Shown here: positions 17,225 to 36,160 of the stretch, one piece after another
How positions within the stretch are numbered: the stretch's first letter is position 1
Layout of the letters: each line of letters starts with the position of its first letter
Assembly (NCBI GenBank): GCA_964429035.1
Contig: CAYSAT010000002.1
Coordinates: forward strand, 26,626-90,625
Length of the DNA: 64,000 nucleotides
From: an uncultured Candidatus Cloacimonadota bacterium
Lineage (GTDB): Bacteria > Cloacimonadota > Cloacimonadia > Cloacimonadales > Cloacimonadaceae
Direction: 5' to 3'
The notes under the pieces: model-generated
The model's input: only the letters and a program-made list of their open reading frames with translations
Told to the model about the DNA's origin: nothing
The model's database searches: none
Position numbers and translations under genes: made by a program

Positions 17225-17271
17225 CTTTATACCTCACATATGTATCTGATACATTGATCTTTGCATAATTG

Positions 17272-18519
17272 TCACGCCAGTTGCAGGCGCAGCAGGTCTT
17301 CTTTCGATTTACCCAAAACATCGTATTTTTTTCCGATTTTCACAAACACTTCCAGAGCCCGGTCCAGGTGGACTTGATCATGGGCGGCCGATAATTGCGT
17401 CCTGATCCTGGCCTGGCCCTGGGCTACGACCGGGAAAAAGAAGCCCACGGCATACACTCCCTCTTGATAGAGATCATGGGAGAAGTTTTGGGCCAGTTTG
17501 GCGTCGTAAAACATAATGGGAACTATCGGCGAATCTCCGTTCACAATGATAAATCCCGCATCGTCCAGGCTGCGGCGCCACCATTGGGTGTTTTTTTCCA
17601 ATTTATCCCTGCGTTCGGTGGTTTCTTCCAGGAGGTCAAGTACTTTCATGGTGGATAACGTGATCATCGGCGCCAGCGTATTGGAAAACAGGTAAGGCCG
17701 CCCTCTTTGCCGCAGCATGTCTATCAGCTCTTTCCTGCCGGAAACGCAGCCGCCGGATGCTCCGCCCAGGGCTTTGCCAAAAGTAGTGGTTATAATATCT
17801 ATCCTGCCCAGTACATCATGCAATTCAGGCGTGCCCCTGCCCTGTTTTCCCATAAAACCAGTGGCATGAGAATCATCGACAAAGACCAGGGCATCGAATT
17901 CATCCGCCAATTGCACTATTTGGCCAAGTCTGGCGATGTCGCCATCCATCGAAAACACACCGTCGGTAATGATCACTTTACGGGGACAATTCTGATATTG
18001 CTCAAGTTTCTTCCTCAGATGCTCCATATCGCTGTGTTTGTAAGTGTCTCTTTGAGCTTTGGCAAGCCTCATCCCATCGATAATCGAAGCATGCACCAAA
18101 CGATCGGAGATCATGACGTCATTTTCGTCCAGCAAGGTTTCAAACACCGCGCCGTTGGCGTCAAAACAGGAGCTGAAAAGAATGGTATCCTCAGTGCCCA
18201 GAAACTGGCTTAGCCTGGCTTCCAGTTGTTTGTGGATATCCTGAGTGCCGCAGATAAATCGCACCGACGACAAGCCATAACCCCTGTATTCGAGAGCTGC
18301 GTGAGCAGCTGCCACGACTGCAGGATGGTTGGACAGCCCCAAGTAATTATTGGAACACATATTGATCAACTTTTTCTGGGTACTGCCCGCAGGATACTCG
18401 ACCGTGATCTCAGCTCCCTGCACATCGCAGATGATACGTTCGTTTTTGTAGAGTCCGTTCTCGGAGATGGACCTGAGGGTCTCCTGGTATGATCCTTGTA
18501 CCTTTGCGGAATAGGCCAT
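17272..18519 (-). CDS. kbl: Glycine C-acetyltransferase / 2-amino-3-ketobutyrate CoA ligase (alpha-oxoamine synthase family)
   Basis: 415 aa, colinear with E. coli Kbl as I recall it: NNYLGLSNHP, VRFICGTQDIHKQLE, SSCFDANG, HASIIDG, TDGVFSMDGDIA, VDDSHATGF, FGKALGGASGG (PLP Lys), RPYLFSN. Confidence 0.85.
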   Translation of the reverse strand: MAYSAKVQGSYQETLRSISENGLYKNERIICDVQGAEITVEYPAGSTQKKLINMCSNNYLGLSNHPAVVAAAHAALEYRGYGLSSVRFICGTQDIHKQLEARLSQFLGTEDTILFSSCFDANGAVFETLLDENDVMISDRLVHASIIDGMRLAKAQRDTYKHSDMEHLRKKLEQYQNCPRKVIITDGVFSMDGDIARLGQIVQLADEFDALVFVDDSHATGFMGKQGRGTPELHDVLGRIDIITTTFGKALGGASGGCVSGRKELIDMLRQRGRPYLFSNTLAPMITLSTMKVLDLLEETTERRDKLEKNTQWWRRSLDDAGFIIVNGDSPIVPIMFYDAKLAQNFSHDLYQEGVYAVGFFFPVVAQGQARIRTQLSAAHDQVHLDRALEVFVKIGKKYDVLGKSKEDLLRLQLA

Positions 18520-22155: not shown

Positions 22156-22797
22156 CTATACGGTTTTCGCTGGATTCCCAAAAACCGTCACGCCCGGTTT
22201 GACATCACGGATAACCACGCTGCCAGTGCCTACCGTTGCGCCGTCCCCGATCTTAATTCCCGGAATCAAAACAGCGCATGAGCCGATGGTAACGTTTTCG
22301 CCGATGATACAACCGCCTCCTACCTGGACCCGAGCAAATAGGGTTGTATAGTCTCCGATCACCGTATCATGCCCAACCTGTGTGCCACCGTTCACAAAGA
22401 CCAGAATCCCCAGTTTCACATTAGCAGACAAGACGCTATAGGCGGCCACGATGGATCCTTCACCGATCTGGTTGAATTTCCCGATCCTGGCGGTAGCGTT
22501 GACATAGGTCACAATGTTGGTTTTGGCCTTCAGATGCCTGTAGATCTTCAGTTTCCAGTCCGCCTGAGTTACCGCTATCAGGCAATGGTCATCTTTGGTA
22601 AGTGGGTAATCCTCCCAACTGCCAAGTATGTTGTAATCGCTTGGATATCCTTCCAGGGGGGATTTTCCGCTATTTGTATGCAGATAACCTTGAATATTCC
22701 AAAGCAACGCATCCGCAGGAGTAATTTCAATGGCAGATTCCAGTTCCCGACCAAAGTTCGCTGCACCCACGATGAAGAGTTTTTTCCTAATGGGCAT
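22156..22797 (-). CDS. NeuD/PglD/VioB-family amino-sugar N-acyltransferase
   Basis: 213 aa. N-terminal Rossmann-like KLFIVGAANFGRELE, then an LbH domain with VGHDTVIG (general-base His context) and a VFGNPAKTV end. Confidence 0.8.
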   Translation of the reverse strand: MPIRKKLFIVGAANFGRELESAIEITPADALLWNIQGYLHTNSGKSPLEGYPSDYNILGSWEDYPLTKDDHCLIAVTQADWKLKIYRHLKAKTNIVTYVNATARIGKFNQIGEGSIVAAYSVLSANVKLGILVFVNGGTQVGHDTVIGDYTTLFARVQVGGGCIIGENVTIGSCAVLIPGIKIGDGATVGTGSVVIRDVKPGVTVFGNPAKTV

Positions 22798-23551
22798 TCA
22801 AGCCACCGTCCACGATCAGATTGGTCCCAGTGATCCACCGCGAAGCATCGGCCATAAGGTACACGCAGGCATTTGCCACATCCTGAGGTTCGCCCAAACC
22901 CAAAAGAAATTCCCCGGTTCTTTGAGCCAACTGCTCGCTGTTCAATTGCGCTAAAACATCCCGGACTATATCGGTCATTATTAAACCTGGAGAAACACAA
23001 TTAACTCGCACTTTCTTCTTTGCCAGTTCGATCGCCATTGAGCGAACCGCAGAGATCAATGCCCCTTTGGTCGAGGCATAGCCTGTGACTCCCGCCCTGC
23101 CTTTGATCCCACTTATAGAGCTGATAAAGACGATACTGGAACCTTCCGGGGGAATGTGCCTGGGGTTGGTGACCAACTTAGCAATTTCCAAAGCAGGATA
23201 CAGGTTTACCTCAAACAGTTTCCTGTAATTGTCTATTTTCATTTGCCTGAAGGCCATCGTCAATTGGATACCTGCTGAATGTATAAAGCCGTGGATCTGA
23301 TTGAATCTATCCAATACCAGTACCAACGCGTCATGCAGATCCCCCTCTGAAGTGATATCAACCGGTACAATGAGATGGTTCCCCTCTTTCATTAAGCCCA
23401 AGGTCTCTTTCAGACGCATGCTATCTCTAGACATAAGCGTTACATTAGAACCCCTGTTACTGCACTCGATGGCACACTGCCGACCTATTCCGGAGGAAGC
23501 GCCGGTAATGATTACATTTTTTCCATCTAGTCTGAATTGATCGTGATTCAA
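22787..23551 (-). CDS. Short-chain dehydrogenase/reductase, FabG-like ketoreductase (SDR-3)
   Basis: 254 aa; VIITGASSGIGRQCAIE, YASTK (YxxxK), VNCVSPGLI. The TTG start lies 2 nt after the upstream stop. Confidence 0.85.
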   Translation of the reverse strand: MNHDQFRLDGKNVIITGASSGIGRQCAIECSNRGSNVTLMSRDSMRLKETLGLMKEGNHLIVPVDITSEGDLHDALVLVLDRFNQIHGFIHSAGIQLTMAFRQMKIDNYRKLFEVNLYPALEIAKLVTNPRHIPPEGSSIVFISSISGIKGRAGVTGYASTKGALISAVRSMAIELAKKKVRVNCVSPGLIMTDIVRDVLAQLNSEQLAQRTGEFLLGLGEPQDVANACVYLMADASRWITGTNLIVDGGLNAH

Positions 23552-23552
23552 T

Positions 23553-24614
23553 TCAGATCTCCACCAGATCGCTTATTTTAGGATTGTCCAAACGGATTAT
23601 GGCGCTGGCCCAAGAAAGTCCCACTCCAAAAGCGGATAAAAGTAAGGTGCTTTTCCGGTTTGGTAAGTTCCCCGCGAGTTCGGTGACCATGGTGAGCGGC
23701 AGCGAAACGGAGCTAAGGTTGCCAAAACGGTCCAGTGAAAGGGGTATCTTCTCCATCGGAATCTTCATCTTCCTGGAGATGTGCTTGATGATGAACAGAT
23801 TCGCCTGATGGAAAATGAAATGGTCAATATCCTCCACTCCGATATGTGTACGCTCCATTAATTCCCTGATATCTTTAGGCACTTCAGTTATCGTGAAATC
23901 AAAAACGGCCGGGCCGTCCATTCTGGCCTGTTCGTCACTGCGAATGCTGCCGTCCTCGCGTAGTAAAGGTTCCAGTGTCGCGGCAGAAGTGGGATTGCGA
24001 TAAGCACCACCGTCCTTGATTATCGCCTGGTATCCTGATCCGTCTGTGTTAAGGCTGAAGCCTGATTTTAGCTCGGCATCACCCAATCTTTCAACTAGTG
24101 CGGCCGTAGCCCCGTCCCCGAAAAGCAAGGAAGTGGCTCTATCTGTTTTGGATATGTAATTGACAATCACATGTCCATTCACCAGCAGAATCCTGTTCAT
24201 TGATTTGTTCTGCAACAGGCTATAGGCCATGTTCAAGGCGTAAACGAAGCCGCTGCAGCCCATGCTGATATCATAACACATAGTGGACTCAGGAAGCCTG
24301 AGTTTATCATGTAGAATGAATGAGGTTGGGGGCACCCTGTAATCTGGAGTGGCGTTACAGAATATCATAGCATCAATGCTTCTCGCATCGATGTCATTAT
24401 CGCTAAGCAATTTGGCGGTTGCGGAAAAAGCCATATCCGAAGCAACAATATCAGCACTGGACCAGCGCCTGAATTCAATGCCGGTCATCTTGATAACCTT
24501 GTCAGCTTCTTCATCCGAAAAGAAATCCGAGAAGGATTTGTTGTCGGCCACACGCTTGGGGGTGCATGCACTCATGGCTGTTATGGCCACGTTATCATAT
24601 TCGAAATATGCCAT
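23553..24614 (-). CDS. 3-oxoacyl-ACP synthase III (FabH-like), catalytic triad intact (KAS-4)
   Basis: 353 aa; YDISMGCSGF (Cys), FIFHQANLF (His), FGNLSSVSLP (Asn). GAGGAG before the ATG. Confidence 0.85.
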   Translation of the reverse strand: MAYFEYDNVAITAMSACTPKRVADNKSFSDFFSDEEADKVIKMTGIEFRRWSSADIVASDMAFSATAKLLSDNDIDARSIDAMIFCNATPDYRVPPTSFILHDKLRLPESTMCYDISMGCSGFVYALNMAYSLLQNKSMNRILLVNGHVIVNYISKTDRATSLLFGDGATAALVERLGDAELKSGFSLNTDGSGYQAIIKDGGAYRNPTSAATLEPLLREDGSIRSDEQARMDGPAVFDFTITEVPKDIRELMERTHIGVEDIDHFIFHQANLFIIKHISRKMKIPMEKIPLSLDRFGNLSSVSLPLTMVTELAGNLPNRKSTLLLSAFGVGLSWASAIIRLDNPKISDLVEI

Positions 24615-24623
24615 ATTAACTCC

Positions 24624-25394
24624 TCAGTGAGCTGTGTAGCCGCCGTCCACGATCATATTGGTACCGGTGACGAAGGATGCAGCGCGAGAAATCAGATAAA
24701 CGCATGCCAGAGCCACGTCAGTAGGTTTGCCCAGCCCTAAAACCTGATTTTTCAACATGTTTTCCATCGCGTTGGCGGGAACCTTGTCTTCATATCTGTC
24801 GTTCATCTCTGTATCGATGATACCTGGAGAGATAGCATTGACCCGGATCTTTTTCCTGCCCAGTTCCATGGCCATAGACCTGACTCCGGATATCAACGCC
24901 CCTTTGCTGCTGCAATAGGCCGTTTTCAAACCTTCGCCAACCACTGACATAACAGAAGAAATGAACACATAACTGGCTCCGGTTTCTGGATAAGATCCTT
25001 TTTTGGAAAGCAGGCGTACAAACTCAAAACCTGAAATGACATTAATCCGGAACTCTCTTTCGTATATCTCCGGTTTGGTTAAATGTATCGGAAACGTGCC
25101 GCCAATGCCCGCAGAATGGATGAAGCCTGCCATAGCGCCCAGTTTATCGACGGAGTCCCGCACGATGTTTTGGATATTAACATAATCCGAGATGTCGGCA
25201 GCGTAGCTCAGATGTGATCCCGGTTTGAGCAGGGACAGAGTCTGTTCCAGCCGATCCCTGTTTCTTCCGATCAAGACAACGTTGGCGCCATAGCGGCTGC
25301 ACTGGATGGCGCATTCCCTGCCGATTCCGGATGACGCTCCGGTGATCATCACGTTCAGACCTGCCAGGCCAAAGTTGCTTTTTTCGATGTCCAT
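24624..25394 (-). CDS. Short-chain dehydrogenase/reductase, FabG-like ketoreductase (SDR-2)
   Basis: 256 aa; VMITGASSGIGRECAIQ, YCSSK, VNAISPGII. Clear paralog of 22787..23551. Confidence 0.85.
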   Translation of the reverse strand: MDIEKSNFGLAGLNVMITGASSGIGRECAIQCSRYGANVVLIGRNRDRLEQTLSLLKPGSHLSYAADISDYVNIQNIVRDSVDKLGAMAGFIHSAGIGGTFPIHLTKPEIYEREFRINVISGFEFVRLLSKKGSYPETGASYVFISSVMSVVGEGLKTAYCSSKGALISGVRSMAMELGRKKIRVNAISPGIIDTEMNDRYEDKVPANAMENMLKNQVLGLGKPTDVALACVYLISRAASFVTGTNMIVDGGYTAH

Positions 25395-25397
25395 TAT

Positions 25398-26453
25398 TCA
25401 GATTTCCATCAGTTCGGAGCGATAAGTGTTTTCCAGGACTACCAGAGCCGAAGCCAGGGATAACCCGGCGCCGGCAGCGCATAGCATCACTACCTGCTTT
25501 TCCGTGCGGCCCATGCCAATATCTTTAAGCAAACTCAGAACAAAGGCTGCGGAGCCAGTGTCTCCAAAGCGTTCTACAGCATTAAGCGCTTTCTCGGCTG
25601 GGAATCCGGCCGAGTTCACGATGAGGTCGTTAGTTTTCTTGTCAAAGGCGTGAGGAATGATCCGGGAAACCTCATCCGCCTGCATCCCCGCCGCATCAAA
25701 TAACGACATGATTTGCGGTTGCACAGCTGTCTGCACATAGCGCTGCAGGGCCTCGATATCCACATGGCACTGCTCGTCCGAGCGGACGCTGCCGTCAGGA
25801 TAGTTCTTTTCCCGCAGGCTTTCCAAGCTGCTGGGGTTCCGGTAGCCACCCGCGGGGATCATGACGCTGGCGTTTTGGCCCGCGTTGGTGGAAAATAGAA
25901 AGTGGGACCTCTCCGCTGTTTCCGATTTTCCCAACAAGCAAGCGGTGCCGGCATCGCCAAACACCAGGCCGGTGGTCCGGTCTTTGAATGAATACGCCTT
26001 GGAGGCTGTTTCCCCGCAGAGCAGCAAGACATGCCTGACGTTTTTGCTCTGCAGGAGTGAAAAGCCCAGGCTCAGGCCCAGCAAAAAGCCCGGAGGGCCA
26101 AGATTGATATCGTAGGTGGCACAGCTTTTAGCAAAGCCCAGCTTGTGCTGCAGCACATTGCTGGTTCCGGGCGTCTTGTAATCCGGGGTTTGGGTGTTCA
26201 CGATCAAGACGTCGATCTGACTGCGCTCGATGCCCATTTCGCCCAGAAGCTTTTCCGCGGCAGCCTGGCAAAGGTCGGAAGCACAGATTTCCGGGGGCGC
26301 AAGGCGTCTCTGCAGCACCCCAGTCCGTTCAACGATCTCCCTCGCTTCATCCGGGCTGAAGAAACTGCTGTCCGTCAGATTGTTGAAAATCTTGCGGGGA
26401 ACAGCCCCGGCCACTCCCAGGATCGCGGTCCCGTCAAACTGTAGGTATGCCAT
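25398..26453 (-). CDS. KASIII-fold protein with degenerate active site (KAS-3; Cys->Pro, Asn->Asp)
   Basis: 351 aa, full-length paralog of 23553..24614 (GGYRNPSS, DGSVRSDEQ, C-terminal SELMEI). It reads YDINLGPPGF, IIPHAFDKK and FGDTGSAAF at the three catalytic positions. Confidence 0.8.
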   Translation of the reverse strand: MAYLQFDGTAILGVAGAVPRKIFNNLTDSSFFSPDEAREIVERTGVLQRRLAPPEICASDLCQAAAEKLLGEMGIERSQIDVLIVNTQTPDYKTPGTSNVLQHKLGFAKSCATYDINLGPPGFLLGLSLGFSLLQSKNVRHVLLLCGETASKAYSFKDRTTGLVFGDAGTACLLGKSETAERSHFLFSTNAGQNASVMIPAGGYRNPSSLESLREKNYPDGSVRSDEQCHVDIEALQRYVQTAVQPQIMSLFDAAGMQADEVSRIIPHAFDKKTNDLIVNSAGFPAEKALNAVERFGDTGSAAFVLSLLKDIGMGRTEKQVVMLCAAGAGLSLASALVVLENTYRSELMEI

Positions 26454-26465
26454 TGTCTATCCCAG

Positions 26466-26687
26466 TCAGGAATTTTGCGAGATATAGGCGTAAACTTCGC
26501 CCAGAGTTAGCATTTGCTTGAACTCGTCTCTGGGAATGACCAGCCCGTATTCCTCATCAATCAGAGAAATAAAGGTCAAGTGTGCCAGAGAGTCCCATTC
26601 GGGGTAATCCCTGAAGATGTCCTCGGGTTTCACGGTGCCTTCATCCCTTTCCAGGGCTTCTGTGATGAGATTGATGAATTTCTCCAT
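26466..26687 (-). CDS. Acyl carrier protein (ACP-2)
   Basis: 73 aa, acidic; YPEWDSLAHLTFISLIDEEYG Ser attachment context. AGGAG before the ATG. Confidence 0.8.
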   Translation of the reverse strand: MEKFINLITEALERDEGTVKPEDIFRDYPEWDSLAHLTFISLIDEEYGLVIPRDEFKQMLTLGEVYAYISQNS

Positions 26688-26722
26688 TTTATGCTCCTTA
26701 TGCTTACTTGTTTTGGCAATTT

Positions 26723-28108
26723 TTAGGTATAGAGTACCTTACCAAATTCGTTCCGCGGAATCTCGGCCTGGCAGGATATCTCCACAGCCAAAGACTGGAT
26801 CCCGGTTTTGTCAATAATATGTTTGCGGACCGCATCGACAGAGTCAGCCTTCGTAATAACCAGTTGCAGTTTGTCGTCCCTGCCGGCGCACAGGCATTCA
26901 ATGCCAAACTTTTCCCTGACCATAGTTTCAATTTCATCGAGGCTGACCCTGAGCCCGTAGATCTTGAGAAACCTGCTTTTCCTGCCAACGATATAGTAGC
27001 AGCCATCGGAATCCCTGCGGGCAATGTCCCCGGTGGGCAAAACCCCTTCGCGCTCGTCGCCTTTTATCAGGTCTTCGCCGCCATAGGCATAGCCCCAGGT
27101 AACGTTGGGACCCCGGTAAACCATCTCGCCTGTCGCCGCCATTTCCTTTATCTCACCGCCTGATTCGTCAATCAGGGCGAGTTCGCCGCCAGGAATGGCG
27201 CGACCGATGCTGCAGGTTTTTGTAACCGCCAATTCTGGAGGTAAGTATGCCATCCTGGCTGTCCCTTCGGTTTGTCCGTAGGTGGCATAGAACTTTCTGC
27301 CGCTCTGCTGGCAAAAATCCGCCAGTTTTTGGAACAAGGCAGCAGGGAGTTTTCCACCGCCCTGGCTCAAGGTGTTCAAGTGAGGTAAGTTCATCCTATA
27401 GAAACGCAATTTGTCCAGCACTTCGTAGCTGTAAGGCACTCCGGTAAAACTGCTGGCCTGGCACTCTCTCGCATAAGTCCAGAAAGAACTTTCCGTGAGG
27501 GCGGATGCGGCCAAAAGAACCGTGGCGCCGCTGCAGAGGTGGCTGTTGATAACTGAGAGCCCCATGGTGTATTGCATGGGCAGCGCAGCGAGGGAGCGCT
27601 CTCGTTCCTGAATGTCAAAAAACTCAGCCACGCTGCGGGCGCTGAATTCCAGGTTGGCATAGCTGTGCCGCACCAGTTTCGGGCTGCCGGTCGAACCCGA
27701 GGTCGTCAGCAGCAATGCCAGCTGCGGGTGCAGGGAAAACCCCGGCAAGCCTGTTTTGAGCAGCGCATAACCGCAGTGTTGAAGAACGCTCCGGAAGGGA
27801 AACTCAGCTTTGCACCAATCCGGCGCCCACAGATATCCAGGTTGATAAAGTTCGATCAGTTTTTGCAGCAGCTGGCGGTCCAGGTCCGCGCTAACAAGCA
27901 GAGGGACCAGTCCAGAGGCAAGGCTGGCAATGTAGCCGCTCAGCGAACCAACCGTGTTACTGGCCAGGATGAAGAGCAAAGACCTGGAGCCCACAGCATC
28001 AGCGAAACTTCCGGAAAAGTTGGCCAGATCACCATAACTTAGCTCGCATCCAGTCTCATCGACTGCCGCAATCGCTCCAGGATCTTTTTGCTCAAGATCT
28101 AAGTACAT
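26723..28108 (-). CDS. Adenylate-forming (ANL superfamily) acyl-CoA/acyl-ACP ligase
   Basis: ORF 26723..28228. The start is set at ATG 28108 (MYLDLEQKDPGAIAAVD), 5 nt after the upstream stop. LLLTTSGSTGSPKLV (A3 motif), YGQTEG, GDIARRDSDGCYYIVGR, FGKVLY. Confidence 0.85.
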   Translation of the reverse strand: MYLDLEQKDPGAIAAVDETGCELSYGDLANFSGSFADAVGSRSLLFILASNTVGSLSGYIASLASGLVPLLVSADLDRQLLQKLIELYQPGYLWAPDWCKAEFPFRSVLQHCGYALLKTGLPGFSLHPQLALLLTTSGSTGSPKLVRHSYANLEFSARSVAEFFDIQERERSLAALPMQYTMGLSVINSHLCSGATVLLAASALTESSFWTYARECQASSFTGVPYSYEVLDKLRFYRMNLPHLNTLSQGGGKLPAALFQKLADFCQQSGRKFYATYGQTEGTARMAYLPPELAVTKTCSIGRAIPGGELALIDESGGEIKEMAATGEMVYRGPNVTWGYAYGGEDLIKGDEREGVLPTGDIARRDSDGCYYIVGRKSRFLKIYGLRVSLDEIETMVREKFGIECLCAGRDDKLQLVITKADSVDAVRKHIIDKTGIQSLAVEISCQAEIPRNEFGKVLYT

Positions 28109-28112
28109 TCTT

Positions 28113-28868
28113 TTACAGGACCGTACAGCCGTCCACCCCGATGATCTGCCCTGAGATATAACTTGAGAGGTCGGAAGCCAGGAACACGCAGGCGTTGGCG
28201 ATTTCCTCCGGCTCTGCCAAACGGCCAAACCCGATGTTCGAGACCTTGTCCGAAAAATTGTCCTCCATAACTTGTTTCAGTCTCTCTGTAGCCACCATAC
28301 CCGGAGCTAGGGCATTTACCCTGATGTTGGCGGCAGCCAATTCCTTTGCGGCTGACTTCGTTATAGACACAACCGCCCCTTTGGAAGCGGAATATGCCAG
28401 CTGGCCACCAACGCCATTTACGCCCACGATACTAGACATGTTGATGATAGAGCCTGATTTGTTGCGCGCCATGACTCTGGATACCATTTGTATTAGATCA
28501 ATCATAGCAAACACATTTACATCGAACATGGCACGGAGGTTGTCTTTAGTGATCAAACTCATGAATTCGTAAGTGACAATACCCGCATTATTAACCAGTA
28601 CATCAATGCGGGATTGTTGCTTTCTGATACCGGCCAACGTTTCCTTGACTGCTACGGAGTCAGTGATATTAAAGTAACTGGGTATGATCGTGCCCGGCAA
28701 ATCAGCTGGCAATTCACCCAGCCAGGCATCGACTGAACCCGACACCACATCATTAGCGTAAACAACCGCCCCCTCCTCCGCAAAGCGCTGCGCAATGGCG
28801 CGGCCGATACCTCTTCCACATCCGGTCACCAGGGCGATCTTTCCTTCCAGAAGCCGTGTGCCGTTCAT
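28113..28868 (-). CDS. Short-chain dehydrogenase/reductase, FabG-like ketoreductase (SDR-1)
   Basis: 251 aa; IALVTGCGRGIGRAIA, NNAGI, YSASKGAV, VNALAPGMV. Confidence 0.85.
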   Translation of the reverse strand: MNGTRLLEGKIALVTGCGRGIGRAIAQRFAEEGAVVYANDVVSGSVDAWLGELPADLPGTIIPSYFNITDSVAVKETLAGIRKQQSRIDVLVNNAGIVTYEFMSLITKDNLRAMFDVNVFAMIDLIQMVSRVMARNKSGSIINMSSIVGVNGVGGQLAYSASKGAVVSITKSAAKELAAANIRVNALAPGMVATERLKQVMEDNFSDKVSNIGFGRLAEPEEIANACVFLASDLSSYISGQIIGVDGCTVL

Positions 28869-28880
28869 ATTATCTCTGCT

Positions 28881-29123
28881 CTAATCTACTGTAATGCCGT
28901 ATTTGGCCAGGATATCCTTGCCCACCACATATGATCTGAAGCCCAAAATATCCTCCGGATCCAGCATAATGTCAAACACATCCTCAAGCTGGCTGACCAG
29001 GCTCAAGTGTACGATCGAATCCCAGCGGGGAAAAGTCCTGATCGCCAGGTTTTCATTGAGCAAGCTCTTATCGATCTCAAAAAGTTCCGTAAATACTTTA
29101 TTGTATGTCTCAGTGTGCGTCAT
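28881..29123 (-). CDS. Acyl carrier protein (ACP-1)
   Basis: ORF 28881..29147. I prefer the third ATG (29123, MTHTETYNKVF) because GAAGGA lies 7 nt upstream. FPRWDSIVHLSLVSQLEDVF is the Ser context. Confidence 0.75.
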   Translation of the reverse strand: MTHTETYNKVFTELFEIDKSLLNENLAIRTFPRWDSIVHLSLVSQLEDVFDIMLDPEDILGFRSYVVGKDILAKYGITVD

Positions 29124-29219
29124 CGTCATTCCTTCGTAAAAAAACATCCTGTTCTGGAGTAACCGTCCGATTTACATTTTCCGATGTTTCCAGTGCCTTT
29201 ATCCAAGGCATCCGGCTGA

Positions 29220-30296
29220 TCATAGAACTCCTTCTGCATAGAAGGCATCTGTTCGGATCGGTGGTAACATGGCTCCGGTGTTGATCACAAGATCGGCGCA
29301 AGCCCAGGACAGCCCGGCTCCGAAGCCGCACATCAGCAGCCTGATGTCCCGTTTTTCTTTGCCAGCATAGGTTTCCGACAAGGTCATGGGTATGGAATTG
29401 CTGCTGGTGTTGCCGTAAAGATCCAACGAGACCGGCATTTTTTCGGGCGGGATCTTGATCTTGCGGGCTATTTGCTTCAGGATGTAGATATTGGCCTGGT
29501 GCAAGGCGAAACAGTCATAATCATCTGATGTGGCGGCCAAATGATCCATGAATTCCTTGATCAGTTTGGGCACATCCGTGATAGAAAAACCGAACACCTC
29601 CATGCCCTTCATATTGATGTCGTAGTCTGAGCGCAGAATGCCGTCAGACCACAGCACTCTCTCATGTGATGCTCCCATGTTTCGGTATGCCCCCGACGGA
29701 GTTATTATGGCTTTGAACCGGTTTCCGTCGGTGCGGTGAGTAAAATGTGTGTGACTGTTCTGGTCAGATTTCTCGATGAGAGTAGCCGAACCGCAATCCC
29801 CGAACAGCATGATCATTGTGCGGTCGTGAGGAGAGATCGTTCTAACTGATGTGTCGCCGGTTATGAGAAGGGCAGTAGTGGCGTCGGAACTCGCCAGCAT
29901 CGAATAGACCAGATTCAGCCCGTAGATGAAGCCAGAGCAGGCCAGGTTGATATCGAAACACATGCAGTTGCGGCTGAGACCCAACCTTTTGTGTATGACA
30001 AAAGCGGTGGAGGGAGCCCGGTAATCAGGTTTTTGAGTCACGAAAACCAATAAGCCGATTTTCTCCGGATCAACTTCTTTTTGGGTGATCAGATGCCTGG
30101 CAGCCTCATAACCCAGATCGCCCGCTGTTTGTTCAGGGATGGCCCGGCATACGCTTTTAACTCCGGTCATTTCGGAAAACTTATCCACAGTCTCTGCCCC
30201 GAACGAATCCTTGTAGAAATCAACCGAAAGATCGGTGGTTGGCATGGCCACGGACATTCCAGAGACAGACAGCCCTTGAAAACTACTGATTAACAT
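29220..30296 (-). CDS. 3-oxoacyl-ACP synthase III (FabH-like), catalytic triad intact (KAS-2)
   Basis: 358 aa; FDINLACSGF (Cys), FALHQANIY (His), YGNTSSNSIP (Asn). Confidence 0.85.
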   Translation of the reverse strand: MLISSFQGLSVSGMSVAMPTTDLSVDFYKDSFGAETVDKFSEMTGVKSVCRAIPEQTAGDLGYEAARHLITQKEVDPEKIGLLVFVTQKPDYRAPSTAFVIHKRLGLSRNCMCFDINLACSGFIYGLNLVYSMLASSDATTALLITGDTSVRTISPHDRTMIMLFGDCGSATLIEKSDQNSHTHFTHRTDGNRFKAIITPSGAYRNMGASHERVLWSDGILRSDYDINMKGMEVFGFSITDVPKLIKEFMDHLAATSDDYDCFALHQANIYILKQIARKIKIPPEKMPVSLDLYGNTSSNSIPMTLSETYAGKEKRDIRLLMCGFGAGLSWACADLVINTGAMLPPIRTDAFYAEGVL

Positions 30297-30335
30297 ATAG
30301 ATCCACTCAACAGAAACCCCTGATCCTGTCTGAGT

Positions 30336-31364
30336 CTAAATATCATGGCTAACTGCCCCTTCCGTGTAGAAGTCATCAGTCTCAATCACGGGCAATACGG
30401 CATCGGCGCAGATCGTAAAATCGGCAAATCCCCAGGATAATCCCTCACCCAAACCACAAGCCAGCACCCGCGAGCATTTATTGCCTTTGACATGCCCGTA
30501 ATGATCAGATATTAGCAGAGGTATTGATCCTGCTCCTGCATACCCCATTTGCCTGCTGTTTTTCAATACTTTCTCTGCTGGAATGCGTAATCTGTGGGCT
30601 AGTTCCTGGACCAATCCTTCACTGAATTGAGTCAGGGCAAAACTATCAAAATCTGCAGTCTCTGAGCCACAACTTGCTACATACTCCTGAAATGCCTGCG
30701 GAATTTCATTGCTAAAGAAATCATGTAGCCCCTGAACGTCGACGCGGAGAGAATCTTCCTGATCCGACCCTGCATCTTCTGCTTTTATAAAGCCATTGGA
30801 CGGATGCTGCATTCTGAAAGCTCCAGATGGAAGGATCATTGAGTTGATAGCATTTCCATCTGTGCCAGTAAAAACATGAAGATCATCAGAAATCTGCGCA
30901 CTTTCTAGTAGAAGCGCTGAAGTACTGTCTCCCACTTTCCAATCTGGATACAATTCAGAGGGGGCCATCTGCTTGCTTAGGGTGTCGCCCGTGATCAATA
31001 ATCCATAACGGCAATTGATTCGACTTAGAAGTGATCCTACAATGGCAATACCATAAATGAAACCTGCACCACTAAGATTGATATCAAAAACAATACAATC
31101 TACTGGTAACCCTAACCGACTCTGCAGCACGCACGCGGTTGCAGGGCTGCGATAATCTGGGGTTTGTGAAACAAAAACCAATATTCCGATCTCAGCAACC
31201 GAAACTCCCAGTTCTTCAATCGCACATTGCGCGGCGCTAAAACCAAGGTCTCCTGCCGTCTGGAATTCTGAAACCCAGTATGCGCCTGTTTCACTTGATC
31301 TTTTTTTGGGGATTGCTGAAGCCAGGGCAGCAATTTTTACGTCTGAAATACTGAATTTATTCAT
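30336..31364 (-). CDS. KASIII-fold protein lacking all three catalytic residues (KAS-1)
   Basis: ORF 30336..31466 (TTG). The start is set at ATG 31364 (MNKFSISDVKIAALASAIPKK), which aligns with the N-termini of the other KASIII paralogs. It reads FDINLSGAGF, FALTQFSEG and MGYAGAGSIP at the Cys/His/Asn positions. Confidence 0.8.
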   Translation of the reverse strand: MNKFSISDVKIAALASAIPKKRSSETGAYWVSEFQTAGDLGFSAAQCAIEELGVSVAEIGILVFVSQTPDYRSPATACVLQSRLGLPVDCIVFDINLSGAGFIYGIAIVGSLLSRINCRYGLLITGDTLSKQMAPSELYPDWKVGDSTSALLLESAQISDDLHVFTGTDGNAINSMILPSGAFRMQHPSNGFIKAEDAGSDQEDSLRVDVQGLHDFFSNEIPQAFQEYVASCGSETADFDSFALTQFSEGLVQELAHRLRIPAEKVLKNSRQMGYAGAGSIPLLISDHYGHVKGNKCSRVLACGLGEGLSWGFADFTICADAVLPVIETDDFYTEGAVSHDI

Positions 31365-31478: not shown

Positions 31479-33065
31479 TCATATAATTCCGGCATTGGAG
31501 ACACGGGATCCCCGGCGAGGATTGAAAGATACTGTATATGAGAAGGTTGCCATGCCAGGATAGTTGTGATCGACAACATGCATCAGTAGATCTGGCGCAA
31601 CCAGGTAATTGTTGGGAAATATATGGTCGCTGCTGATCCCAGGAAAATTATGGGCGCCGTCAGCGTAATACGAGTTTGTCCCAAAGCAATGGACATAGAT
31701 GCCATTGCCGAAGAAGTTGTTATTTTCAGCTGAGGGGATACAGCTAATAACGCCAATCCCATCTTCATAAAAACCATTTAGCTCAATATCAATATCGTTA
31801 GCATAGAATTCATTGTATTCAATTTCGATTTCTGAAGCGCTGGGTGATACTGCGCTGGAATTGCGGTCAAAGCAATTGTGGGTAATTGATACCGTGCCAA
31901 TGATCGGCCTGACGCCGAACAAATTCTCGCAGAAATAGTTATTGTTGACATTGCCAACAGTTACCAATAACTGTAGAGGATCCCTATTTGCGTAGAAAAC
32001 AGATTCTTCCACTGTGATGCTATTCATAAGGGAGTGGATGCCTCTCAGCCCGTTTCCGGTCATCATAATATTACTGATGTTGCATTGAGTGGTTTGTACA
32101 AGCAAAGCCATAGAACTGGTATTTTTGAGGATAGAATAGCTAAGTTGCAGAGAACTGCCCGCTATTTTAATGCCTTCAACAGCAGAATCCATGATCATGC
32201 CAGAAATGCTGACATTATTGTTCGGATTCAGTACGCCTACAGAATTGTAGGGCATAATAGAATCGATATCTGCAATCAAGTCAATATTATGCGATGATGT
32301 TAGTCGCCACCAGCCTCCATCATTACTGGTTGTCACTGCTCCCTGGAAATTCAACCTGGTGTTTGGTGCCACAGCAATTACTGAACCTGCTTCAACTGTT
32401 GCGGTGCCGAGCACAGTGGTGTCAGTCGTAATAAGATATGTCCTGCCCTGGGCAAAGGTTATATTGTTAGAAACAAGCGCAGGTACTTGCCTGGTTGGAT
32501 ACAAAGTGACGCTTCCCTTATGAATTGGAGGCTGCACTTTAGTGATAAGTGATTTATCAAGAGATCTGGCACTATGGTAGTTGCTGGCTTTTTTAAGATC
32601 ATTATCTCCTTGTTCTACTTCAAATTCCAATATATACAGCTGTCCCCAACCCTGTTTCAAAAACACGAGATTATATGTTCCAACCTCAATATCATTAAGT
32701 GTAAAGACACCGGCCGCGTCAGTAACAGAATGTTTCATGGGGTCCTCTTTACGGTGGTCGAATTCAGTCTCCTGGCTGACGGACACTCCGATCTCGGGAT
32801 ACTTTTGATTGATACGCACAAGGGTTGTATCGAGTTCAGCCAGTTTATATAAGGCTACCGTAACACCGGAAAAATCGCCAGGATCATTGGCGGGATATCC
32901 TGTATCATTGACCAATTGTACATTTCCAGCCAGTGAACCAAATTCCGGCTTGTGGGAGTTACAACTGAAAAGCAATGCAAATGCCACCAGAGTAAAGAAA
33001 AGGGTGGCAAAGGCTGACGCGCGGCGGTGCGTGATGCTACGCTGGATATCTATCCTAGTGTTCAT
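31479..33065 (-). CDS. Probable lipoprotein with CarboxypepD_reg-like domain and right-handed parallel beta-helix repeats
   Basis: 528 aa. Signal peptide with LFSC lipobox-like site (FTLVAFALLFSCNSHK). DAAGVFTLNDIEVGTYNLVFLKQGW resembles a carboxypeptidase-regulatory-like fold. The C-terminal half is repetitive N/G/I-rich, beta-helix-like. Confidence 0.5.
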   Translation of the reverse strand: MNTRIDIQRSITHRRASAFATLFFTLVAFALLFSCNSHKPEFGSLAGNVQLVNDTGYPANDPGDFSGVTVALYKLAELDTTLVRINQKYPEIGVSVSQETEFDHRKEDPMKHSVTDAAGVFTLNDIEVGTYNLVFLKQGWGQLYILEFEVEQGDNDLKKASNYHSARSLDKSLITKVQPPIHKGSVTLYPTRQVPALVSNNITFAQGRTYLITTDTTVLGTATVEAGSVIAVAPNTRLNFQGAVTTSNDGGWWRLTSSHNIDLIADIDSIMPYNSVGVLNPNNNVSISGMIMDSAVEGIKIAGSSLQLSYSILKNTSSMALLVQTTQCNISNIMMTGNGLRGIHSLMNSITVEESVFYANRDPLQLLVTVGNVNNNYFCENLFGVRPIIGTVSITHNCFDRNSSAVSPSASEIEIEYNEFYANDIDIELNGFYEDGIGVISCIPSAENNNFFGNGIYVHCFGTNSYYADGAHNFPGISSDHIFPNNYLVAPDLLMHVVDHNYPGMATFSYTVSFNPRRGSRVSNAGII

Positions 33066-33196: not shown

Positions 33197-34066
33197 TCAA
33201 TCCAATTTCACAATCAGATTCAACAGGTATTCCCCATATCCGCTTTTTCTGATCGGTTCTGCAATGCGGCAAAGTTGATCCTTGTCTATATAGCCTTTAC
33301 GGTATGCTATCTCTTCTATACAGCCAATTTTAAATCCCTGCCGTTGTTCAATGATCTCCACGAATTGGGAAGCCTGCAGAAGTGATTCAAAGGTACCAGT
33401 ATCCAGCCAGGCAGTGCCGCGGCCAAAGACCATAACTTTAAGTTTGCCTGCTTCCAGGTAAACCCTGTTCACATCCGTAATTTCATACTCGCCACGGGAC
33501 GAAGGTTTGATCTCGCGGGCGATCCGGAGTACGCTGTTATCATAGAAATACAAACCAGGTACGGCAAAATTGGATTTGGGGTTCGCCGGTTTTTCTTCGA
33601 GTGATATCGCATTAAAACTCTTATCAAACTCCACCACTCCGAAAGATTTGGGGTCACGGACTGGATAGGCTGTTATTATCGCACCCTCTGGATCTATGCA
33701 GTTGCTCAATCGAGACTGGATATCGGCACCATAAAAAATATTGTCTCCCAAGATCAGGCAGACATTATCTGAGCCCACAAAATCTGCTCCGATCACCAGC
33801 GCTTGTGCCAGGCCGTTTGGTACGCTCTGGATTGCGTATACGAATCTCATACCCAGGTCAGAGCCGTCCTTAAGTAATTTCTTGAATGATGCTTGATCTT
33901 CCGGCGTGGTGATGATCAGCACATCTTTGATACCGGTAAGCATCAATATTGAAAGAGGATAGTAGATCATGGGCTTGTCATAAACCGGCATCAGCTGTTT
34001 ACTGACCGCAATTGTCAGCGGATGAAGACGGCTTCCGGCTCCTCCGGCTAAAATGATACCTTTCAT
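33197..34066 (-). CDS. rfbA: Glucose-1-phosphate thymidylyltransferase
   Basis: [55 protein letters not shown] is the classic RmlA N-terminus. ATG 34066 is preceded by GGAG; the TTG at 34078 in the ORF track is less likely. Confidence 0.9.
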
Positions 34067-34112
34067 TGTGCGCTCCAATTCGTTTTATTGATTTTTGATA
34101 GGCTCATCTAAA

Positions 34113-35198
34113 CTATTTAGTAACATTTAAAAGGATTGCGCAGATTCTGTCAATATCATTGTGGGTAAGGGTATAATAGAGAGGCAAGCAAAGAATCCGC
34201 CTGGAGATATCTTCGGACACTGGGCAGGGCATATATGGTGTTATCTTGATAAAAGTATTGACTGAAGGATAGAAATACCGTCTGGCATAGATCTCGTGTT
34301 GGGCCAAGGCTTCAAGCACATTCAAGGTTATTTTTTCGGTAGGAAACATCACTGGAAAATAGGAATAATTACTGGTCCCGTGTACAATTCTTTGGAATTT
34401 TAGGGAAGAGGAACGGCTCAGCAAAGCATTATATAGGTGATGTTTTTCTTTGCGGTCATTCAGAATACTTTGGAAAGAATCTAGATTAAGTATTCCCAGG
34501 GCAGCATGAACCTCGGTCATTTTGCCGTTGAATCCGTCTTCAACTACCTCCTTGGCAGAGTCAAATCCAAAGAACCTGATTCTATTCAGTTTTTCATATA
34601 CATCCGGGTCATTGGTTACACAGGCACCACCCTCAGCAGTGTTGATGATTTTGGTTGCGTGAAAGCTTGTTGCAGAAATATCTCCATAACTAAGTAAGCT
34701 TTCTCCGTTGACAACTGATCCAACTGCATGGGCGGCATCATAAATCACTTTGAGATTATACTCACGAGCGATCATGTCTATTGTCTCGATATCACAGGGG
34801 TTGCCAAATACATGTACGGGCATTATGGCGACCGTTTTTTCTGTTATGAGTTCCTCTATTTTTCGGACATCAAGGTTCAGGGTGTTTGGATCAATATCAC
34901 AGAAGACTGGAGTGCAAGACTCCCATTTTATTGCGCTGATTGAGGCTACCCACGTAAAAGGTGTCGTGATGATCTCGCCTCTTAAACCCATCGCTTTGAT
35001 GGCCATCTGCAGTGCTACAGTCCCGTTAGTAACTGCTATGATATGTTTTAAACCTAGCACAGAGCATAAAGACCGCTCAAATCTCTGGACCACTGGGCCG
35101 TTATGGGTTAATATTCCGGTTCCCCATATGTCAGCAAGGATTTTATCCAGCCTACTAATATCCGGCAAATATGGTTTGATCACTGGTATCTTAGCCAT
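34113..35198 (-). CDS. DegT/DnrJ/EryC1/StrS-family sugar aminotransferase
   Basis: Start at ATG 35198 (MAKIPVIKPYLP), an 8-nt overlap with the upstream stop. The PLP-Lys context is TSFHATKIINTAEGG. Confidence 0.85.
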   Translation of the reverse strand: MAKIPVIKPYLPDISRLDKILADIWGTGILTHNGPVVQRFERSLCSVLGLKHIIAVTNGTVALQMAIKAMGLRGEIITTPFTWVASISAIKWESCTPVFCDIDPNTLNLDVRKIEELITEKTVAIMPVHVFGNPCDIETIDMIAREYNLKVIYDAAHAVGSVVNGESLLSYGDISATSFHATKIINTAEGGACVTNDPDVYEKLNRIRFFGFDSAKEVVEDGFNGKMTEVHAALGILNLDSFQSILNDRKEKHHLYNALLSRSSSLKFQRIVHGTSNYSYFPVMFPTEKITLNVLEALAQHEIYARRYFYPSVNTFIKITPYMPCPVSEDISRRILCLPLYYTLTHNDIDRICAILLNVTK

Positions 35199-36156: not shown

Positions 36157-36160
36157 ATCC

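Follow-up and report, generated by a model that had tools for sequence, protein, structure and literature searches.

The whole stretch of DNA that was analysed (64,000 nt), hereafter referred to as the window, carries on its minus strand, between 31364 and 22156, a block of 11 co-directional genes (Table 1), which were annotated with Pfam and TIGR profiles and by reading of the sequences. In minus-strand order, these genes encode a dead KASIII (dKAS-1), an active KASIII (KAS-2), an ACP (ACP-1), a FabG-like SDR (SDR-1), an ANL ligase and a further ACP (ACP-2), followed in the second half of the block by a dead KASIII (dKAS-3), an SDR (SDR-2), an active KASIII (KAS-4), an SDR (SDR-3) and a NeuD/PglD/VioB-type transferase, and all the gene types listed in the original prediction are recovered. 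The successive gaps are 39, 72 (96 with the shorter ACP-1 of 80 aa given in Table 1), 12, 4, 35, 12, 3, 9 and 1 nt, the last gene pair (SDR-3 and the transferase) overlaps by 11 nt, and the next gene lies 100 nt further. The tight packing predicted earlier is therefore observed, with a measured range of 1-96 nt and this one overlap in place of the 2-90 nt given before. On the 3' side of the transferase gene, a hexapeptide acyltransferase (201 aa, directly after it) and two GT2 genes are found, and two DegT genes flank the block, as had also been anticipated.

Table 1. Positions of the block genes and of the sugar-nucleotide and export genes of the same locus.
Feature	Position	Strand	Basis of assignment
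dKAS-1, KASIII fold without catalytic triad	30336..31364	-	Pfam ACP_syn_III + ACP_syn_III_C
KAS-2, active KASIII (C-H-N), proposed condensing enzyme of the ligase-primed module	29220..30296	-	
ACP-1, small carrier with WDS serine	28881..29123	-	profile matches to solved ACPs
SDR-1, FabG-like 3-oxoacyl-ACP reductase	28113..28868	-	TIGR01830, NF009466
ANL adenylate-forming ligase, ~461 aa	26723..28108	-	Pfam AMP-binding
ACP-2, carrier	26466..26687	-	PP-binding
dKAS-3, KASIII fold, P-H-D	25398..26453	-	triad reading and homologue tally
SDR-2, ketoreductase-type SDR	24624..25394	-	profile matches
KAS-4, active KASIII (C-H-N), proposed second condensing enzyme	23553..24614	-	
SDR-3, ketoreductase-type SDR	22787..23551	-	profile matches
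NeuD/PglD/VioB-type left-handed beta-helix N-acyltransferase	22156..22797	-	TIGR03570
RmlA	33197-34078	-	Pfam
DesI-like C4 aminotransferase (DegT)	34113-35204	-	TIGR04427 DesI best family match; 2po3, E 4.5e-64
KijD10-like sugar 3-ketoreductase	35191-36156	-	PDB 3rbv, E 1e-63
NDP-hexose 2,3-dehydratase	36161-37510	-	Pfam, 445 bits
Wzx	37623-39095		profile match

The residues at the positions of the E. coli FabH triad (Cys112/His244/Asn274) are C-H-N in KAS-2 and KAS-4, G-T-Y in dKAS-1 and P-H-D in dKAS-3, in agreement with the predicted division into two active and two dead proteins. On the fabH profile TIGR00747 (cut-off 292.1), KAS-2 scores 191.8 and KAS-4 scores 210.6, and the equivalent of FabH Phe87 is a small residue (S, A, T, V). 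KAS-2 shares 55-67% identity with the partner KAS in related loci, and among solved structures 4efi (E 3.8e-63) is closest to it.

As judged from its homologues, dKAS-1 falls in a widely distributed clade, whose members are degenerate partners encoded directly upstream of an active KASIII. In the recurrent module referred to as kKaRL (dead KAS, KAS, ACP, SDR, ligase), the upstream KAS lacks the Cys in 12 complete and 4 cut cassettes, the exception being the cut locus L005 (C-H-N). The triads of these proteins have drifted (GQN, SQD, GND, GPD, AQD, AHD, GSS, GNY, GTH, GHN, SNQ, SQE, GSN), and their full length and the adjoining C-H-N partner are kept. The loop equivalent to residues 84-91 of FabH (P-D-Y-R-x-P-A), which in FabH extends into the primer pocket of the partner subunit, is invariant across 31 dead homologues; this interface motif is in line with pairing, and dKAS-1 and KAS-2 may form a heterodimer. 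Condensing enzymes with an adjacent, catalytically lost paralogue are known from P. aeruginosa PqsBC, where PqsB and PqsC are FabH-like, and from the KS/CLF pairs of type II PKS. The KAS proteins of the window are also FabH-like, and a dead paralogue is encoded beside an active one, a likeness that is seen here at the level of the genes. A dead paralogue adjoining an intact KAS and kept across species is found for dKAS-1/KAS-2; dKAS-3, in contrast, is unique and is encoded apart from KAS-4. In addition, CLF has a conserved Gln, whereas the triads of the dead partners of the window type drift freely, and, unlike in PqsBC and KS/CLF, many of the sister ligase cassettes (the ARRLaKM forms) are without any dead KAS. 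In view of these forms, and of L016, where the upstream KAS is broken up over two ORFs, the cassettes may be able to do without a dead partner.

The history of dKAS-3 appears to be different. Among its 120 listed homologues, 116 have the C-H-N triad, one is dKAS-3 itself, one is C-P-D, one is a fragment and one lies outside the tally, and the next-best of the matches listed is 44% identical. The ACP-KAS-SDR order around dKAS-3 is shared with L030 and L029. On these comparisons, dKAS-3 corresponds to the KAS that comes first in ligase-free cassettes, in a copy inactivated specifically in this lineage, and it could be just a decaying gene.

The two carriers are of different types. ACP-1 (database record of 80 aa) has zero Pfam matches; a profile built from 10 orthologues finds solved ACPs, the best being 2lml (E 2e-6), and its WDS serine is invariant among the orthologues. 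Carriers of this type alone make up 2,268 protein clusters. ACP-2 matches PP-binding, its orthologues head related cassettes, and carriers of its type adjoin the transferase in every form of the cassette; ACP-2 is proposed to carry the extender and the product. The ACPs reach 29-36 bits against cut-offs of 66-84 (29.1 against 70.45 for TIGR00517). All three SDRs are read as retaining the TGxxxGIG and Ser...YxxxK motifs. SDR-1 scores below cut-off both with TIGR01830 (210.3 bits, cut-off 297.75) and with NF009466 (202.4 bits), and shares 54-66% identity with the SDR in related modules; the identity of SDR-2 is 45% with SDR-3 and 32% with SDR-1. The ligase (Pfam AMP-binding, 132 bits; best solved relatives oxalate-CoA ligase and MenE, ~90 bits) has the motifs TSGSTGSPK, YGQTE, TGD, GRxxxxxK and a C-terminal GK; the ANL core motifs A3, A5, A7 and A8 and the A10 lysine are all present, and the A4-position Asp used by alpha-amino-acid activators is absent. 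It is proposed to be an acyl-ACP-1 synthetase that loads a starter acid. Its most likely start is the ATG at 28108, 4 nt past the SDR-1 stop; a TTG at 28228 was set aside in favour of it.

The transferase is covered end to end by the NeuD/PglB/VioB profile TIGR03570, with 155.4 bits just below the cut-off of 160.8, and its catalytic His143 (GHD motif) is conserved with respect to VioB, WeeI and PerB. Among solved relatives, VioB (7txp, E 6e-22), a dTDP-4-amino-sugar N-acetyltransferase, ranks first. A left-handed beta-helix enzyme that delivers 3-hydroxyacyl-ACP to a sugar amine is known in LpxD; the window transferase, with 72 on the LpxD profile against a cut-off of 242.5, falls in the NeuD/PglD/VioB branch, not with LpxD. 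It is proposed to move the finished acyl group onto a 4-amino sugar. The acceptor route in this locus is of the 2-deoxy type (2,3-dehydratase and 3-ketoreductase), and since KijD10-like, DesI-like and 2,3-dehydratase genes lie upstream of the block, the acceptor is most likely a dTDP-4-amino-2,4,6-trideoxyhexose, in line with the dTDP substrate of VioB. RmlB is not recognised in the window, where the gene at 12070-12996 reaches a score of 87 (cut-off 365), and neither Polysacc_synt_2 nor Bac_transf genes are found in the window.

Cassettes of this kind have been described before. In the fish pathogen F. psychrophilum, Cisar et al. (2019) identified wfpC and wfpE as KASIII, wfpD as ACP, wfpF as KR and wfpG as PglD homologue genes; wfpG was assigned to the transfer of the acyl group from ACP to UDP-Qui2NAc4N, and wfpC-G to the formation of a 3,5-dihydroxyhexanoyl group (PMC6519341). 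These assignments are based on a correlation between locus and structure, not on enzymology; the N-3,5-dihydroxyhexanoyl group itself has been shown chemically in the R1-group O-antigen (PMC6519341), and the earlier mention of such a Flavobacterium O-antigen was correct. The interpretation in the original prediction is only partly right: the block had also been called the best candidate for an undescribed system, which is not supported, because wfpC-G had already been assigned (PMC6519341) and cassettes related to the block occur commonly among public genomes and metagenomes. Judged from gene content, both loci have dedicated KASIII enzymes beside a small private ACP and a FabG-type reductase, and a PglD/NeuD transferase within the cassette, in a Wzx-type glycan locus (Wzx/Wzy for wfpC-G; Wzx with sugar 4-aminotransferases, as predicted, in the window). 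The proposed logic is also alike, with an undehydrated hydroxyacyl-ACP that would be used for N-acylation of a 4-amino-6-deoxy sugar. The wfp cassette has five genes, with one ACP, one KR and no ligase, whereas the window block has 11 genes, with two ACPs, an ANL ligase, three SDRs, two dead KAS and a dTDP 2-deoxy route. Genes of the PglF and PglE types, as used for UDP-Qui2NAc4N, and of the PglC type (initiating transferase) are found in the Flavobacterium relatives, unlike in the window. By this analogy, the block is an enlarged relative of wfpC-G. In V. cholerae O1, rfbK-O provide the tetronate N-acyl group of perosamine by means of an ACP that belongs to the O-antigen locus, together with an adenylate-forming ligase and a transferase of the hexapeptide type; a 4-amino-4,6-dideoxy sugar thereby receives a short, hydroxylated N-acyl group, a logic like that proposed for the window. 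To our knowledge, rfbK-O include no KASIII and no condensation, an activated C4 acid being reduced instead of a chain being extended.

In the sample of public genomes and metagenomes, in which complete cassettes were counted apart from cut loci, 42 related complete cassettes with 22 other gene orders are found in Flavobacterium, gut Bacteroidales, Planctomycetes and others. They are located in glycan loci beside DegT, PglC-like and PglF-like genes, and most include a NeuD/PglD-type gene; an MBL-fold hydrolase, common among them, is missing from the window block. The architectures are graded, from ACP-KAS-SDR-NeuD (L029) through ACP with two KAS, two SDR and NeuD (L018-L023) to forms with a ligase. 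Both ACP types are present in 26/26 complete ligase cassettes, and among the loci fetched with the KAS query the ACP-1 type does not occur in ligase-free cassettes. The kKaRL module is accompanied elsewhere by its own ACP-2/SDR/NeuD trio (12/12 complete cassettes). As read from these sequences, two recurrent modules are fused in the block: the ligase-primed kKaRL, and a complete set of the kind without ligase (ACP, two KAS, two SDR, NeuD), in which Cys and Asn of the first KAS are lost. The 11-gene order and composition has no second instance in the sample; the cassette type is widespread and already predicted in F. psychrophilum, and this composition is new. The 2-deoxy acceptor route, the fusion of two modules and the constant association of the ligase with a second ACP are points that the original prediction had missed. 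No biochemical characterisation of any cassette member was found in the literature or is known to us.

Taken together, the gene content points to a glycan-tailoring cassette, which would build a short beta-hydroxylated acyl group on its own ACPs and transfer it to the amino group of a nucleotide-linked sugar; we assign this reading a probability of roughly 0.6. Each step is inferred from the gene content. The ligase would adenylate a small carboxylic acid other than an alpha-amino acid and load it on ACP-1. KAS-2, with dKAS-1 as its probable non-catalytic partner, would then condense this primer with malonyl-ACP-2, the malonyl group being supplied by the FabD of the cell, and an SDR would reduce the 3-keto group. 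A second C2 unit may be added by KAS-4 and reduced by another SDR; the third SDR may reduce a keto group of the starter or share the work. The SDR:KAS ratio varies across cassettes (2:1, 2:2, 2:3, 1:1; here 3:2), and therefore gene counting does not fix the product. The hydroxyls would be retained because the block is without dehydratase and enoyl reductase. The Pfam scan, which covered the long ORFs of the minus strand between 754 and 44233 and three short ORFs, detected no FabZ/FabA, FabI, FabF/B, FabD or thioesterase, and no KASI/II, MCAT, enoyl reductase or dehydratase is found in the window. These absences had been predicted, and the restriction of the chemistry to activation, loading, condensation and keto-reduction is consistent with the gene content. 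It is conceivable that housekeeping FabZ and FabI could act in trans on the ACPs of the block, which counts against hydroxyl retention. Finally, the NeuD/VioB-type enzyme would move the chain from ACP-2 to the amino sugar that is most likely made by the upstream 2,3-dehydratase, 3-ketoreductase and C4 aminotransferase. The characterised PglD/VioB/PerB-type enzymes use, as far as we know, acyl-CoA, not acyl-ACP, and the lack in the window of an enzyme that shifts the chain from ACP to CoA counts against this last step. The unrecognised RmlB and the missing MBL-fold hydrolase likewise speak against the tailoring reading.

A more specific version of this tailoring pathway is tentative and, taken as a whole, rather doubtful. 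It combines a non-iterative, ligase-primed two-module line of stand-alone KASIIIs, each paired with a degenerate KASIII that would shape the primer pocket or set the chain length (among KASIIIs, an equivalent of CLF in type II PKS), an acyl product of at least C7 with three hydroxyls, and a PglD-type transfer straight from ACP to the 4-amino-2,4,6-trideoxyhexose. We know of no report of either this sugar or a trihydroxy acyl group of at least C7 in a bacterial surface glycan. If this version is true, the combinatorial shuffling of parts among cassettes would quite generally diversify the N-acyl groups of glycans, those in the capsules of human gut Bacteroidales included.

Two independent tailoring systems, in which the genes from dKAS-1 to the ligase make one acyl group and those from ACP-2 to NeuD another (for example, 3-hydroxybutanoyl from KAS-4 alone), destined for different amino sugars or positions through different transferases of the locus, are an improbable alternative. 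In its favour, the locus encodes at least four acyltransferases of the hexapeptide type, one of them the 201-aa protein directly after NeuD, besides two aminotransferases of the DegT family, and the ACP-2-to-NeuD set matches ligase-free cassettes that stand alone elsewhere. However, the 12/12 association of kKaRL with the trio, no self-sufficient kKaRL being known, the single NeuD-type gene and the tight packing of the 11 genes argue for one system, and the Cys loss of dKAS-3, unique among the listed homologues, is explained most simply if another module took over priming.

It is less probable still that the cassette only primes, and that the housekeeping FAS-II extends and fully reduces the 3-hydroxyacyl-ACP to a long-chain (3-hydroxy) acyl group serving the glycan as an anchor or lipid modification, for which LpxD in lipid A and NodE/NodF in Nod factors are precedents. 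The small equivalents of FabH Phe87 are compatible with larger primers, the transferase is weakly similar to LpxD and LpxA, and a chain-terminating enzyme is absent; on the other hand, the one product of related cassettes that has been solved chemically is a dihydroxy acyl group of C6, the block ACPs are far from AcpP, and the varying KAS and SDR counts suggest one gene per step. In addition, KASI/II is not encoded here, and KASIII is not known to elongate long chains.

A small polyketide or lipid cluster unrelated to polysaccharide, or the FAS-II initiation set of the cell, is very unlikely: although KASIII, ACP, KR and ANL ligase are likewise known from the priming modules of type II PKS and from FAS-II, and FabH, FabG, AcpP and LpxD/LpxA share folds and reaction types with the block, the window has no cyclase, aromatase, FabD, FabF, FabZ or FabI, the KAS, SDR and ACP scores all stay under the FabH, FabG and AcpP equivalog cut-offs, two of the four KAS are dead (an accessory rather than housekeeping character, as predicted), the genes share a strand with sugar-nucleotide, Wzx and GT genes, the NeuD-type sugar N-acyltransferase belongs to the cassette in most relatives, and the many gene orders of these relatives are unlike a conserved housekeeping set.

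The region 22156-31364 of the window contains eleven tightly packed minus-strand ORFs, as found by ORF reading, with intergenic gaps of 1 to 96 nt and a single overlap of 11 nt. The Pfam and NCBIfam matches agree with the original prediction of an eleven-gene block of these types, and the fold assignments of its proteins are unambiguous. The description of the four KASIII-fold proteins as alternately dead (catalytic triad lost) and active is also correct, as shown by the triads at the positions of E. coli FabH Cys112/His244/Asn274. The ORF labeled ACP-1 has no Pfam match and is assigned from sequence as an ACP, because the profile of its ten orthologues retrieves solved ACPs (top match 2lml, E = 2e-6) and because the WDS serine is invariant in these orthologues. 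A Pfam search of three short ORFs and of the long ORFs on the minus strand of the glycan locus (754-44233) finds no dehydratase (FabZ/FabA), enoyl reductase, KASI/II, malonyl transacylase or thioesterase, in accord with the earlier, accurate description of the block. A promoter and terminator scan gives counts at chance level, with a promoter model that does not cover Bacteroidota-type promoters.

Features of the window, with their positions, strands and identifying evidence
Feature	Position	Strand	Evidence
dKAS-1, KASIII fold	30336-31364	-	Pfam, NCBIfam; triad G-T-Y
KAS-2, KASIII fold	29220-30296	-	Pfam, NCBIfam; triad C-H-N
ACP-1, 80-88-aa ORF	28881-29147	-	profile of ten orthologues
SDR-1, classical, FabG/KR type	28113-28868	-	Pfam, NCBIfam
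AMP-binding ligase	26723-28108	-	Pfam, NCBIfam
ACP-2, PP-binding	26466-26687	-	Pfam, NCBIfam
dKAS-3, KASIII fold	25398-26453	-	Pfam, NCBIfam; triad P-H-D
SDR-2, classical, FabG/KR type	24624-25394	-	Pfam, NCBIfam
KAS-4, KASIII fold	23553-24614	-	Pfam, NCBIfam; triad C-H-N
SDR-3, classical, FabG/KR type	22787-23551	-	Pfam, NCBIfam
NeuD/PglB/VioB-type hexapeptide transferase	22156-22797	-	Pfam, NCBIfam
RmlA, upstream of block	in 33197-37510	-	
NDP-hexose 2,3-dehydratase, upstream	in 33197-37510	-	445 bits
GFO/IDH/MocA protein, upstream	in 33197-37510	-	top solved relative sugar 3-ketoreductase KijD10, 3rbv, E 1e-63
Aminotransferase, upstream	in 33197-37510	-	closest C4 aminotransferase DesI, 2po3, E 4.5e-64; TIGR04427 best family
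DltA-like amino-acid adenylation enzyme	42701-44233	-	TIGR01733 291.6 bits
GNAT	41913-42695	-	
Third small ACP	41659-41937	-	GWDSLSH
MBOAT	40147-41538	-	
342-aa protein in DltD position	39147-40175	-	no family match
Glycine C-acetyltransferase (Kbl)	in 14656-18519	-	581.8 vs equivalog cut-off 460
Fourth ACP, after Kbl	16994-17224	-	PP-binding
Second MBOAT	15590-16945	-	
DUF1574-like protein	14656-15603	-	
GatD	in 44281-48361	-	512.5 bits vs cut-off 324
GatE	in 44281-48361	-	456 bits, equal to NF003107 cut-off; TIGR00134 394.6 vs 319.55
528-aa predicted lipoprotein	31479-33065	-	signal peptide ending in Cys; weak CarboxypepD_reg match only
PGA_cap (CapA-like) protein, PIG-L-type de-N-acetylase, weak ATP-grasp match	2510-5577	-	

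A housekeeping FAS-II role of these genes is rejected on the basis of sub-cut-off scores, dead enzymes and the glycan-locus context. The NCBIfam cut-offs of FabH are missed by KAS-2 and KAS-4 and those of FabG by SDR-1, and the ACP scores are less than half of the AcpP cut-offs. On the same strand as the block are found a Wzx flippase, glycosyltransferases, sugar-nucleotide enzymes and several acyltransferases. The flank beyond 44.3 kb (G+C 52-59%) has housekeeping genes and type IX secretion proteins; the host thus has a type IX secretion system, pointing to Bacteroidota and their allies. The glycan locus (G+C 35-54%) is compositionally mosaic. The G+C content changes in steps, being 35-46% at 2-16 kb, 46-54% at 16-32 kb (where the acyl block forms the peak of 54%), 37-44% at 32-44 kb and 52-59% from 44 kb, and the locus looks to have been put together from pieces of differing origin. 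The genome that encodes the archaeal-type Glu-tRNA(Gln) amidotransferase subunits GatD and GatE, unusual among bacteria, also has, at 52820-55333 and 61003-63912, a PorZ-like protein (112.5 bits, cut-off 260) and a type IX secretion sorting domain.

The claim that the block is an undescribed system does not hold, because its central idea has already been published as a prediction, with the assignment of wfpC-G to an N-acyl group (PMC6519341, 2019). In that study the O-antigen of F. psychrophilum bears N-3,5-dihydroxyhexanoyl on Qui2NAc4N, and the five genes assigned to this acyl are wfpC and wfpE (KASIII), wfpD (ACP), wfpF (KR) and wfpG, the latter being a PglD homologue proposed to receive the acyl group from the ACP; serotype is altered by the R-group genes (PMC6519341). 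A 2026 preprint, which builds serotyping markers on the wfp genes, also refers to another ACP/KASIII set of four genes. When considering the enzymology of any such cassette, or a characterised KASIII/ACP/ligase route to N-acyl sugars, literature searches yield only the F. psychrophilum papers; there is a single published prediction of what the cassette family does, and no test of it is known. The block thus belongs to a kind of system already described, as a fusion variant, unusually large, within a cassette family that is widespread.

This family was surveyed in species-representative genomes, using the dead-KAS homologues as seeds (24 loci), and in metagenomes, using the ACP-1 orthologues as seeds (286 relatives, 80 loci kept). 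Further contexts came from metagenomes and one Flavobacterium genome, and from the loci for a capsule in Parabacteroides distasonis and for pseudaminic acid in Azospirillum. The loci were annotated with the proteins of the window as queries, the triad was read for every KAS, and gene orders were written in letters (A, ACP-2 type; a, ACP-1 type; K, active KAS; k, dead KAS; R, SDR; L, ligase; N, NeuD type; M, MBL-fold hydrolase). There are 23 gene orders among the 43 complete cassettes, window included. The commonest is A-R-N-k-K-a-R-L(-M), with 12 cassettes from Flavobacterium, Psychroflexus, Muribaculaceae and Bacteroidota MAGs; culturable carriers of this form include Flavobacterium buctense JCM 30750, F. 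cheonhonense JCM 17064 and Psychroflexus montanilacus, and an N-A-a-L-K-R form is present in Parabacteroides distasonis. The order (N-)A-R-R-L-a-K(-M) is found in human-gut and other metagenomes, A-K-R-R-L-a-K and A-K-A-K-R-R-L-a-K-M are multi-KAS ligase forms, and A-K-R-N and A-K-R-N-K-R(-M) are ligase-free. The order of the block, k-K-a-R-L-A-k-R-K-R-N, is so far unique, being found once only among these 43, and the species-representative scan contains no locus identical to it. In a collection of ~15 billion proteins, the proteins of the window are singletons at 90% identity, and their nearest homologues are 44-67% identical. At E <= 1e-5 there are 2,268 clusters of ACP-1-type carriers, with no Pfam assignment among the 120 clusters listed, and the family ranges from fish pathogens and environmental Bacteroidota to human gut metagenomes. 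An MBL-fold (Lactamase_B) hydrolase, absent from the window, closes many related cassettes with or without ligase (for example at 14626-15246 of locus L001 and 14762-15451 of locus L018) and may be an editing or releasing thioesterase. On Azospirillum brasilense Sp7 plasmid p3 (NZ_CP033315.1, 322150-341172), a KASIII-SDR pair lies between pseG and pseI of the pseudaminic-acid locus, which suggests that the same logic provides a hydroxyacyl group for a nonulosonic acid.

The block is a fusion of a k-K-a-R-L module with a complete set that lacks a ligase (A, N and two each of KAS and SDR). The parts of the former (KAS, ACP, SDR and ligase) are 46-67% identical to their counterparts in A-R-N-k-K-a-R-L cassettes. 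The ligase is accompanied by both ACP types in all 26 complete ligase cassettes, and no ACP-1 type is found in ligase-free cassettes among the KAS-seeded loci; in one ACP-1-seeded architecture (L037-L039) both ACPs occur with no ligase within the cluster. These co-occurrences are most simply explained if ACP-1 serves as acceptor of the ligase and bears the starter. An alpha-amino-acid (DltA-like) substrate of this ligase is rejected since the A4 Asp is missing; this, and the activity of its closest solved relatives on oxalate, succinylbenzoate and malonate, all of them small acids, gives no more than a hint of a small non-amino acid as substrate.

In all 12 complete k-K cassettes, and in four cut ones, the upstream KAS lacks the Cys, the replacement residues varying by locus. 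This dead KAS is full length, adjoins a C-H-N partner and has an invariant P-D-Y-R-x-P-A loop, which we take to align with FabH residues 84-91, lining the primer pocket of the partner subunit. Such a pattern is as expected for a non-catalytic partner in a putative heterodimer, by analogy with PqsB or CLF. A KSQ-like decarboxylase role is unlikely, as G, S, A, N or P replaces the Cys, and in no case a conserved Gln. There are two exceptions: in locus L005 both the upstream KAS (95-1180) and its partner have C-H-N, and in L016, the closest genome relative (47% identity), two overlapping ORFs (2852-3942) stand in place of a single upstream KAS, through either a frameshift or an assembly error. 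Because of these two loci, the dead partner is neither ancestral nor clearly indispensable. At the position of FabH Phe87, the four KAS of the window have S, A, T or V. For dKAS-3, the 120 homologues listed include 116 with C-H-N, one with C-P-D and one fragment, and its ACP-KAS-SDR surroundings match those of two loci (L029 and L030) in which this KAS is active. We read dKAS-3 as a priming KAS, originally from a cassette without ligase, that was probably inactivated recently, once priming had passed to the ligase module. It may now be the partner of KAS-4 or may be decaying.

As to the acceptor, it is established deoxysugar chemistry that RmlA, a 2,3-dehydratase, a 3-ketoreductase and a C4 aminotransferase give dTDP-4-amino-2,4,6-trideoxyhexose. 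The upstream genes thus predict a 2-deoxy amino sugar in a polysaccharide; no RmlB is recognised within the window. The top solved relative of the transferase is VioB, which acetylates dTDP-4-amino-4,6-dideoxyglucose, and the catalytic His is conserved. The 2,3-dehydratase, KijD10-like 3-ketoreductase and DesI-like aminotransferase typify actinomycete antibiotic deoxysugar routes, but the present host is a bacterium that has type IX secretion, and its copies belong to a surface-glycan locus. In the best-supported reading of the mechanism, a starter would be loaded onto ACP-1 by the ligase, two KASIII condensations would use malonyl-ACP-2, the keto groups would be reduced with retention of the hydroxyls, and the acyl chain would be passed from ACP-2 to the 4-amino sugar by the PglD-type enzyme. 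What the analysis establishes is the gene content, the catalytic residues, the recurrence of the cassettes and the co-occurrence rules; the substrates, the roles given to the two carriers, the heterodimers and the acceptance of acyl-ACP by a PglD-type enzyme are predictions. A fixed rule that the SDR count equals the KAS count plus one holds in the window and in the k-K-a-R-L form and fails in other cassettes. Chain length and hydroxyl number are not derivable by gene counting, because the SDR:KAS ratio differs among cassettes.

Amino sugars with unusual N-acyl groups form dominant epitopes and, to our knowledge, acetyl-CoA-type transfer is the only route to such groups for which the enzymology is established. 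The cassette family revealed by the survey is large and modular and for the most part lacks annotation. What is of value here is the set of rules that apply across the family, and the unusual acceptor pathway, rather than the existence of the block. Two rules, the ligase with a second carrier and the degenerate partner of an active KASIII in one form, are concrete hypotheses for biochemistry; should gene content turn out to be predictive, sequence could serve to forecast serotype and the acyl chemistry of glycans.

The gene of the predicted lipoprotein separates the acyl block from the sugar-nucleotide genes, and the CapA-like and de-N-acetylase genes are at the far end of the glycan locus. 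Two other sets that include a carrier protein are present on the same strand. The set at 39147-44233 is a Dlt-like O-acylation set, having the second ligase of the locus. In the set at 14656-18519, in the middle of the glycan locus, an alpha-oxoamine synthase adjoins a carrier protein and an MBOAT.
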